A stretch of DNA of 64,000 nt from Escherichia coli (lineage in GTDB: Bacteria; Pseudomonadota; Gammaproteobacteria; Enterobacterales; Enterobacteriaceae). Of the stretch, positions 11,408 through 53,073 are shown in pieces (positions within the stretch are counted from its first letter, which is position 1; each line of letters starts with the position of its first letter). The position numbers and the translations under genes were made by a program. A model generated the notes under the pieces. That model had not been told where the DNA came from, searched no databases, and worked only from the letters and a program-made list of their open reading frames with translations. The stretch is from assembly GCF_003334255.1 (NCBI RefSeq), contig NZ_QOWU01000003.1; one strand, written 5' to 3'.

Positions 11408-13543
11408 TTACTCGCCCTGTTCAGCAGCCGGAGCTTCCGGTGCTGCAGCAGGTTGAGACTGCTCAGTCGCTTCTTTAATGCTCAGACGGATACGGCCCTG
11501 GCGATCAACTTCCAGAACTTTCACCGGTACTTCCTGACCCATCTGCAGGTAATCGGTCACTTTCTCAACGCGTTTGTCAGCGATTTGAGAGATGTGGACC
11601 AGACCTTCTTTACCGCCGCCGATGGCAACAAATGCGCCAAAGTCAACGATACGGGTCACTTTACCAGTGTAGACGCGGCCCACTTCGATTTCTGCAGTGA
11701 TCTCTTCGATACGACGAATAGCATGTTTCGCTTTCTCGCCGTCGGTCGCTGCAATCTTCACAGTACCGTCATCTTCGATTTCGATGGTGGTGCCAGTTTC
11801 TTCGGTCAGAGCACGGATTACAGAACCGCCTTTACCGATAACATCTTTGATCTTGTCCGGGTTGATCTTGATGGTATGGATACGCGGTGCGAACTCAGAG
11901 ATATCGCCACGCGGCGCGTTGATCGCCTGTTCCATTACGCCCAGGATATGCAGACGCGCACCTTTAGCCTGGTTCAGCGCAACCTGCATGATCTCTTTGG
12001 TGATACCTTCAATTTTGATATCCATCTGCAGTGCAGAGATACCGTCGCGGGAACCTGCAACTTTGAAGTCCATATCGCCCAGGTGATCTTCGTCGCCCAA
12101 AATGTCAGACAGTACAACGTAGTTGTCGCCTTCTTTCACCAGACCCATTGCGATACCCGCAACGGCAGCTTTGATCGGCACACCTGCGTCCATCAGCGCC
12201 AGAGACGCGCCGCACACGGAAGCCATAGAAGAGGAACCGTTGGATTCAGTGATTTCAGACACAACACGTACGGTGTACGGGAATTTGTCCATATCCGGCA
12301 TGACTGCCAGCACGCCGCGCTTCGCCAGACGACCGTGACCAATTTCACGACGCTTCGGAGAACCGACCATGCCGGTTTCGCCTACGGAGTACGGAGGGAA
12401 GTTGTAGTGGAACAGGAAGGTATCGGTACGTTCGCCCATCAGTTCATCAAGAACCTGCGCGTCACGAGCAGTACCCAGCGTTGCGGTAACCAGCGCCTGC
12501 GTTTCACCACGGGTGAACAGCGCAGAACCGTGAGTACGCGGCAGCACGCCAGTACGCACATCCAGACCACGGATCATATCTTTTTCACGACCGTCGATAC
12601 GCGGTTCGCCTGCCAGTACGCGGCTACGAACAACGTTTTTCTCGATCGCGTGCAGAATTTCACCCAGTTCGTTTTCGTCCAGGGTTTCGTCTTCAGCAAG
12701 CAGCGTCGCGATGGTTTCAGATTTGATGACATCAACCTGCGCATAACGCTCTTGTTTGTCGGTGATGCGGTAAGCATCGCTCAGGCGAGCTTCAGCCAGT
12801 GCAGCAACGCGCGCGTTTAGCGCTTCGTTTACCGGCTCCGGCTGCCAGTCCCAACGCGGTTTACCGGCTTCTTTCACCAGTTCATTGATGTTCTGAATAA
12901 CAACCTGCTGTTGTTCATGACCGAACACTACTGCGCCCAGCATCTGGTCTTCGCTCAGCAGTTGAGCTTCAGATTCAACCATCAGTACAGCGGCTTCAGT
13001 ACCGGCAACAACCAGATCCAGTTTGCTCTCTTTCAGCTCGTCCTGAGTCGGGTTCAGTACGTACTGGTCATTGATGTAACCTACGCGGGCAGCACCAATC
13101 GGGCCATTGAACGGAATACCAGACAGAGACAGCGCTGCGGAAGCACCAATCATCGCGACGATATCCGGGTTAACTTGCGGGTTAACAGAAACCACGGTGG
13201 CGATAACCTGAACTTCGTTGACGAAGCCTTCCGGGAACAGCGGGCGAATCGGGCGGTCAATCAGACGCGCGATCAGGGTTTCGCCTTCGCTTGGGCGGCC
13301 TTCACGACGGAAGAAGCTACCCGGGATACGACCAGCAGCGTAGGTACGCTCCTGATAGTTAACGGTCAGTGGGAAGAAGTCCTGACCTGGTTTGGCTTTT
13401 TTCTGGCCAACAACGGTAACGAATACCGCGGTGTCATCCATGCTAACCATAACAGCGGCAGTAGCCTGACGAGCCATCATGCCGGTTTCCAGAGTCACGG
13501 TGTGTTGGCCGTACTGGAATTTACGAACGATCGGATTAAGCAA
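11408..13543 (-). CDS. pnp: Polynucleotide phosphorylase (PNPase), 711 aa, UUG start
   Basis: ORF track 11408..13630; mature N-terminus [21 protein letters not shown] begins at the TTG codon (plus-strand caa at 13541..13543); KH and S1 domains at the C-terminus. Confidence 0.92.
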
Positions 13544-13744
13544 TGTAATATCCTTTCTCTTTCTTAGACAGTACCTTACGGCACTGGTGTTAATACCCGA
13601 TCTTCTGCGCATCCTCGCGACTAATGACAACCCTAACCCAGCTCTATGTGGGTAAAGCCTCTCATTAGCCGCGCGAACCTCTGCAACGGAAGATCATTCA
13701 TAGCAACAATACATTAGTTTCCAGTGAATTGCTGCCGTCAGCTT

Positions 13745-13774
13745 GAAAAAAGGGGCCACTCAGGCCCCCTTTTC
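13745..13774 (-). terminator. Rho-independent terminator after rpsO, inside the rpsO-pnp leader region
   Basis: Minus strand: GGGGGCCTGAGTGGCCCC hairpin followed by TTTTTT. Confidence 0.7.
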
Positions 13775-13789
13775 TGAAACTCGCAAGAA

Positions 13790-14155
<366 letters not shown>

Positions 14156-14207
14156 TTAAGCGGCAGTATTCTACTCGTAGCGACCTGTTATCGCAAGACG
14201 GTTAACA

Positions 14208-15553: not shown

Positions 15554-15716
15554 AATAAATTCTCCTGACAAAAAAGGGGCTGTTAGCCCCTTTTTAAAAT
15601 TAATTTCAGGTGGAAGGGCTGTTCACGTTGACCTGATAAGACGCGCCAGCGTCACATCAGGCAATCCATGCCGGATGCAGCGTAAACGCCTTATCCCGCA
15701 TGGAACCCTAAAAACC

Positions 15717-20381: not shown

Positions 20382-20405
20382 GCCCACCCCCAAGACATAA
20401 AAAAA

Positions 20406-20466
20406 GGGCCTAAAGCCCAGTTATTCTGTAGTCAGATAACAAAAAACCCCGATAAATCGGGGCTTT
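20406..20466 (-). terminator. Two tandem hairpin plus U-run structures between metY and rimP
   Basis: Minus strand: gccccgatttatcggggc followed by TTTTTT, then gggctttaggccc followed by TTTTTTT. Confidence 0.55.
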
Positions 20467-20587
20467 ATATAACTGAACCCTATAACCGCAACTGCGGTCT
20501 GGAGCACTTTCCAGAAGGATTTTTTCAAATCCCACTACGAAGGCCGAAGTCTTCACAGTATATTTGAAAAAGGACTCTAAGGGAAAG

Positions 20588-20664
<77 letters not shown>

Positions 20665-24446: not shown

Positions 24447-24533
24447 TGGTACCGAGGACGGGACTTGAACCCGTAAGCCCTATTGGGCACTACCACCTCA
24501 AGGTAGCGTGTCTACCAATTCCACCACCTCGGC
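24447..24533 (-). tRNA. leuU: tRNA-Leu (GAG), type II with long variable arm
   Basis: Minus strand reads GCCGAGGTGGTGGAATTGGTAGACACGCTACCTTGAGGTGGTAGTGCCCAATAGGGCTTACGGGTTCAAGTCCCGTCCTCGGTACCA. Confidence 0.92.
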
Positions 24534-31183: not shown

Positions 31184-31219
31184 CAAAAAAATACCGACCC
31201 GGGTACAAGTCCCAGGTCA
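31184..31219 (-). terminator. graL: Intrinsic terminator/attenuator in the greA leader (3-prime end of the GraL leader RNA)
   Basis: Minus strand: gacctgggacttgtacccgggtc hairpin followed by GGTATTTTTTT, about 95 nt upstream of the greA ATG. Confidence 0.5.
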
Positions 31220-31337
31220 GCTACAATTCACATTTTGATAGTCATTTTACCCTGAAGTTCCCGAAGGGTCATCGTTTACTTTATAGGGCGTTGCGCCGTA
31301 GTATGACGGCTCGATTCCAGGTTGTTAGCGCGAGATT

Positions 31338-52952: not shown

Positions 52953-53073
52953 GTGCGGCCTGAAAAACAGTGCTGTGCCCTTGTAACTCATCATAATAAT
53001 TTACGGCGCAGCCAAGATTTCCCTGGTGTTGGCGCAGTATTCGCGCACCCCGGTCTAGCCGGGGTCATTTTTT
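52953..53073 (+). ncRNA. arcZ: Hfq-dependent small RNA ArcZ (SraH/RyhA), about 121 nt
   Basis: Begins GTGCGGCCTGAAAAACAGTGCTGTGCCC and ends with hairpin CACCCCGGTCTAGCCGGGGTCA followed by TTTTTT on the plus strand; the 3-prime end overlaps the arcB stop codon on the other strand. Confidence 0.8.

Follow-up and report, generated by a model that had tools for sequence, protein, structure and literature searches.

The window analysed here, a stretch of 64,000 nucleotides of Escherichia coli DNA, contains the genes rpsO and pnp on its minus strand, separated by a spacer of 246 nt (13544..13789). The first-pass annotation had described an interval of about 250 bp with the rpsO terminator and further GC-rich pairing, which agrees with the terminator and hairpins present there. 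The region is 100% identical to E. coli K-12 MG1655 (NC_000913.3, 3308500..3312500; 4,001 bases compared), and window positions equal MG1655 genome positions minus 3297625. Each of the 5,426 complete E. coli genomes contained a match to a query of 801 bases (13300..14100), and in 5,407 of them the identity was at least 99%. PGAP annotation of another strain gave an identical pnp CDS of 2136 nt. The features of the locus are listed in Table 1.

The E. coli rpsO-pnp control region has been studied by the Portier, Regnier, Hajnsdorf, Deho and Babitzke laboratories. All elements of the published K-12 leader (T1, P2, the RNase III hairpin, the Shine-Dalgarno sequence and the UUG) are present in the window without any difference, as this is the same locus. 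Our analysis covered sequence features, their positions, structures and conservation, and the strand on which structure is selected. The action of RNase III, PNPase, CsrA and RNase E, and the expression and effect of SraG, were taken from the literature.

Table 1. Features of the rpsO-pnp region, in window coordinates.
Feature	Position	Strand	Basis
rpsO CDS (ribosomal protein S15)	13790..14059	-	ORF list; MG1655 annotation
Bidirectional Rho-independent terminator stem-loop: T1 of rpsO (-), SraG terminator (+)	13752..13768	both	Sequence and alignment
P2 -10-like conserved element TGTATTGT	13713..13706	-	T77, G78, T79, T82 and T85 conserved in alignment
pnp P2 transcription start (inferred, +/- 3 nt)	13701	-	237-nt fragment from P2 to ORF nt 79, and RNase III positions (PMC5029454)
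Long pnp leader hairpin ('R' in PMC5029454), site of RNase III processing and PNPase autoregulation	13599..13695	-	MFE fold and covariation; cleavage from literature
Predicted RNase III double cut: RIII1 13663/13662, RIII2 13625/13624	13624..13663	-	Within invariant 12-bp core
In-frame upstream ATG, unused; obsolete 734-aa start	13610..13612	-	Inside conserved GAGGAUG, 3' arm of hairpin
Second pnp 5'UTR hairpin, 7 bp, GUAA loop	13569..13586	-	Between RNase III hairpin and Shine-Dalgarno; structure conserved, sequence not
pnp Shine-Dalgarno AAGGA, 7 nt upstream of TTG	13551..13555	-	Sequence and alignment
pnp UUG initiation codon	13541..13543	-	TTG conserved in all 80 loci; toe-print and TTG-to-TGA mutant in PMC5029454
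pnp CDS (PNPase, 711 aa), TTG start	11408..13543	-	ORF list; MG1655 b3164 (3309033..3311168) maps here
SraG sRNA, 216-nt primary transcript, antisense to pnp 5'UTR	13558..13773	+	RefSeq b4449 (3311183..3311398); Rfam; cRT-PCR in PMC5029454
SraG -10 box TAATAT	13546..13551	+	7 nt before +1 at 13558; between pnp Shine-Dalgarno and UUG

For comparison with relatives, 80 Enterobacterales loci were retrieved with S15 as the query, one of which had no pnp match because its contig was short. Start codons were counted in 80 loci (79 other Enterobacterales and E. coli), 78 distinct spacers were aligned with MAFFT, the second hairpin was folded in 77 loci, and the Rfam SraG model was tested on 60 loci.

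Several lineages carry additional spacer sequence. In loci of Erwinia, Pantoea and Tatumella, about 65 additional nt separate the stop codon of rpsO from terminator T1, a segment that E. coli lacks (at about 1471-1540 in L024, L030, L043, L047, L054, L062-L064, L068-L071, L074, L078, L079 and L082). A long inverted repeat, such as AATCTGATCA...TGATCAGATT, lies within this segment. Other loci have insertions of 50-120 nt that are specific to their lineages, upstream of P2 in L009 and L013, in the apical loop of the long hairpin in L032 and L055, and also in L053; the conserved core arms are retained in these loci. In Affinibrenneria salicis (NZ_VYKJ01000001.1) the rpsO-pnp junction is found twice on one scaffold, at 394545-397211 (L021) and 677918-680584 (L022), with identical intergenic sequence, which reflects either a duplication or misassembly.

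The terminator that follows rpsO has an all-GC stem of 6 bp (GGGGCC/GGCCCC), with UUUUUU downstream of it on the minus strand and a weaker CUUUUCU on the plus strand. Among the 78 aligned sequences, 96.3% of the cells of this stem were paired. A consensus promoter scan listed the terminator on the plus strand only, even though the U-tract is better on the minus strand, and it detected neither P2 nor the SraG promoter (PSraG), both of which are weak relative to the consensus. P2, PSraG and the minus-strand terminator were read directly from the sequence. The sole promoter site that the scan found lies upstream of rpsO (14196..14168 on the minus strand, TTGCGA-17-TAGAAT) and is probably rpsO P1. 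The Rfam S15 leader RF00114, which is the rpsO translational operator, was matched at 14003..14117 on the minus strand with 117.6 bits. Elsewhere in the window, Rfam matches above threshold were the greA leader (31186..31307, minus), the ArcZ sRNA (52953..53060, plus), the rimP leader (20399..20499, minus), the REP-derived naRNA4 (15630..15700, minus) and two tRNAs (20591..20664 and 24450..24533, both minus).

We infer the exact start of P2 and the RNase III cut positions from published fragment lengths and cleavage sites. A P2 start at 13698, derived from the 'positions 1-234' of PMC5029454, was dropped in favour of 13701, since the latter alone fits both the fragment of 237 nt and RNase III cleavage at +39/+77 with a 2-nt stagger. 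A weaker predicted hairpin (13736..13702) overlaps the P2 region; it was only 72% paired among relatives and is not regarded here as a structure under selection.

The first-pass annotation had proposed folding the pnp leader as a check on its structure. Folding of the minus strand from 13745 to 13538 gave -72.8 kcal/mol (z = -4.5), and none of 200 dinucleotide shuffles folded as well. The fold was dominated by a hairpin of 97 nt (13695..13599) with 37 predicted pairs. When the whole spacer was folded, four elements were recovered, namely the terminator stem, the hairpin overlapping P2, the long hairpin and a second small hairpin (13586..13569).

The long hairpin is strongly conserved as a structure. 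In the 78 sequences, 90.7% of its cells were paired on the sense strand. Its core arms, UUCGCGCGGCUAAUGAGAGG and UUGUCAUUAGUCGCGAGGAUG, were nearly invariant and include nine invariant core pairs, and compensatory changes were found in the lower and apical helices. In total, 19 of the 37 pairs changed on both sides; the pair 13684/13609, for example, is G-C in 45 sequences and A-U in 26. For the structure as a whole, none of 500 shuffles reached the observed level of covariation, and sliding the partners lowered pairing from 84.5% to 41-50%.

SraG lies in the pnp-rpsO spacer and is oriented opposite to the two genes, an arrangement found in 59 of the 60 Enterobacterales loci, and it ends at the rpsO terminator read from the opposite strand. 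SraG is the sRNA of Argaman 2001 and of Fontaine 2016 (PMC5029454). The Rfam model RF00082 matched 13602..13773 on the plus strand over the full length of the model (positions 1-177 of 177), with a score of 164.3 bits where the curated gathering threshold is 50 bits (E = 2e-31). This match covers an older, shorter form of SraG, whereas the primary transcript begins 44 nt further upstream. As a known system (RF00082, b4449), SraG has the same coordinates in the window as in RefSeq, lies antisense to the pnp leader and has its terminator in common with rpsO. The opposite-strand RNA that the first-pass annotation had mentioned is borne out by Rfam, RefSeq and PMC5029454. Its extent had to be revised, as the RNA starts about 60 nt further to the left than the proposed interval of roughly 13620..13790. 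The TAATAT box ends 7 nt before the SraG +1. This places the SraG promoter in the short gap that separates the Shine-Dalgarno sequence of pnp from its UUG, and pairing by the SraG 5' end reaches to within 3 nt of the Shine-Dalgarno sequence. An ORF of 58 aa on the plus strand (13479..13655) was dismissed as a product of SraG, because it starts upstream of the SraG +1.

Published experiments support SraG as a transcript of E. coli. cRT-PCR identified an RNA of 216 nt whose 5' end lies 42 nt upstream of the start annotated earlier and whose 3' end is at the terminator common to rpsO, and mutation of the -10 box abolished this RNA (PMC5029454). Full-length SraG blocked the 30S toe-print in vitro and induced new RNase III cuts, and mutation of PSraG increased pnp mRNA by about 30% and also raised PNPase, a small effect (PMC5029454).

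The conserved structure can be read on either strand, and the two readings were compared. Within the long hairpin, G.U cells, which pair only on the pnp strand, numbered 366 versus 61 A.C cells, which pair only on the SraG strand; these counts ignore kinship and represent related sequences rather than independent events. Pairing of the hairpin was 79.8% in antisense orientation, compared with the 90.7% in sense orientation. The sense fold was the more stable one in all 78 loci, averaging -47.6 kcal/mol compared with -31.0 kcal/mol for the antisense fold. The TAATAT box was present at the E. coli position in just 25 of the 78 relatives, although the Rfam SraG model matched 59 of the 60 loci tested; Klebsiella, Serratia and Pantoea do not have the box at this position. 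The comparison of strands shows that the leader structure is selected on the pnp mRNA strand. Because of the G.U excess, the stability of the sense fold and the scarcity of the -10 box despite the many Rfam matches, conservation of the 'SraG family' largely reflects the pnp leader and the rpsO terminator.

These same data invite a stronger interpretation, in which plus-strand SraG is mainly a mirror of the pnp leader and the rpsO terminator, that is, a by-product transcript of marginal function instead of an independently selected regulator. The strand comparison, the patchy occurrence of the promoter box, the small effects of SraG and the fact that no trans targets were found in E. coli (PMC5029454) all point in this direction. 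However, the E. coli transcript is real and its promoter has been mapped, the promoter mutation raises both pnp mRNA and PNPase, the full-length RNA blocks the 30S toe-print in vitro, and a trans target has been reported in Yersinia pseudotuberculosis (PMC5029454). Moreover, because the sequences are related, fewer independent events underlie the strand counts than the numbers suggest. We regard it as unlikely that SraG is a by-product, and prefer the reading of SraG as an antisense regulator of pnp in E. coli.

The function of the long hairpin is described in the summary of earlier work given in PMC5029454, from which we took the autoregulation studies of Jarrige 2001, Carzaniga 2009 and Park 2015. 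[quoted passage not shown] The two sites at +39 and +77 would leave an exact 2-nt 3' overhang (pairs 128-163 and 127-164) only if P2 starts at 13701. Together with the fold and the covariation, these reports uphold the first-pass description of the pnp leader as a target of RNase III and of autoregulation. A role of the hairpin chiefly other than RNase III processing, such as that of a transcription attenuator or a protective 5' stem-loop, might be suggested by its great stability and its position near the 5' end of the P2 transcript. Yet the hairpin is not followed by a U-tract, the published sites fall within the invariant 12-bp core as a cut staggered by exactly 2 nt, and pnp is derepressed in rnc mutants according to that summary; such a role is very improbable.

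Translation of pnp starts at the UUG codon, as the first-pass annotation had claimed. The N-terminus MLNPIVRKF is encoded from TTG 13543..13541, and the current RefSeq and PGAP annotations give a PNPase of 711 aa. TTG is present at the homologous position in all 80 loci. The distance from the end of the GGA to the TTG was 7 nt in 62 of the 80 loci and 8-9 nt in 16, so that 78 of the 80 fall within 7-9 nt. In the alignment columns of the Shine-Dalgarno sequence, G237 was invariant and A235, A236, G238 and A239 were nearly so. Fontaine et al. 2016 (PMC5029454) obtained a toe-print with 30S subunits and tRNA-fMet 15 nt from the pnp UUG, and a TTG-to-TGA mutant served as their translation knockout. 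The deposited solved structures of E. coli PNPase also begin with MLNPIVRKF, which is weak evidence because constructs follow annotation. Initiation at the UUG is thus supported by the annotations, the comparative data and the published toe-print and mutant. As a separate observation, the 90%-identity protein cluster for PNPase also lists sensor histidine kinases of 862 aa as its representative and among its members, which appears to stem from the indexing of the collection rather than from anything in the window.

Upstream in-frame codons offer longer versions of the protein. The first-pass annotation had stated that the ORF could be extended upstream only by using another TTG; the longest ORF indeed starts at TTG 13630, but the in-frame ATG at 13612..13610 had been missed. 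A start at this ATG (734 aa) or at TTG 13630 (740 aa), with the UUG at 13543 as an internal leucine, agrees with the open frame of E. coli from 13630, with the GAGG immediately before the ATG and with the PNPase of 734 aa that GenBank retains for K-12 strains (ACB04243.1 and others), but it is effectively refuted, since a stop codon occurs in frame less than 23 codons upstream of the TTG in 64 of the 80 loci (within 5 codons in 33), the TTG with its AAGGA occurs in essentially all of them, the ATG lies within the base-paired 3' arm of the hairpin with zero spacing from GAGG, and the toe-print, the TTG-to-TGA mutant and the present 711-aa annotations all identify the UUG. Given the TTG in all loci, the GGA 7-9 nt upstream in 78 and the in-frame stops in 64, the upstream ATG cannot be a conserved start. 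The nearly invariant GAGGAUG is probably conserved as hairpin sequence and as a CsrA-type GGA rather than as a start codon.

The second small hairpin occupies part of the stretch that separates the RNase III hairpin from the Shine-Dalgarno sequence. In the MAFFT alignment it was only 54% paired; because the alignment is unreliable in this interval, each sequence was folded separately. A hairpin was then predicted at this position in all 77 loci, with a mean z of -3.1 and with 88% of the loci below -1.5, and the sense strand was the more stable one in 56 of the 77. This hairpin may help to position two CsrA GGA sites, or may shape the access of 30S, S1 or RNase E. Many 'SraG' calls in databases may not be expressed sRNAs, because selection acts on the pnp strand and many genera lack the SraG promoter of E. 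coli. We put forward only tentatively, and with more doubt than conviction, the combined proposal that the second hairpin is an unstudied functional element and that many of these database calls do not represent expressed sRNAs.

Taken together, we assign a probability of about 0.95 to the reading that this is the E. coli K-12 rpsO-pnp intergenic control region, functioning as the literature describes, and we met no evidence that contradicts the literature-based account of the region. The UUG start, the leader with its RNase III hairpin and SraG are all real and have all been described previously. On this account, most rpsO transcripts would end at T1, whereas read-through transcripts and those from P2 would carry a pnp leader of about 158 nt. 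RNase III would cleave the long hairpin on both arms, and PNPase would then remove the small 5' fragment that is still paired to the leader. Removal of this fragment would expose pnp mRNA to RNase E and to CsrA, which would bind GGA motifs including that of the Shine-Dalgarno sequence, and through this exposure PNPase would repress its own synthesis. Translation begins at the UUG located 7 nt downstream of AAGGA. SraG runs antisense across the entire leader and ends at the same terminator hairpin; its pairing with pnp mRNA would block 30S binding, create new RNase III sites and modestly lower pnp expression.

By analogy, this control may be likened to that of the rnc leader (rncO), where a ribonuclease gene is likewise governed by RNase III cleavage of its own leader hairpin. 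The two would differ in the sensor, which for pnp would be PNPase degrading the duplex made by RNase III, supplemented by CsrA and SraG, and not RNase III itself.

Confirmation of these features benefits annotation quality only: the PNPase start should be set to give 711 aa and not 734, and SraG should be placed at 13558..13773. Covariance-model matches to SraG in other genera largely mirror the pnp leader and are no proof of an expressed sRNA. For E. coli, the locus represents a classic case of layered post-transcriptional control of a major ribonuclease, which combines RNase III cleavage, PNPase autoregulation, CsrA, an antisense sRNA and a weak UUG start.
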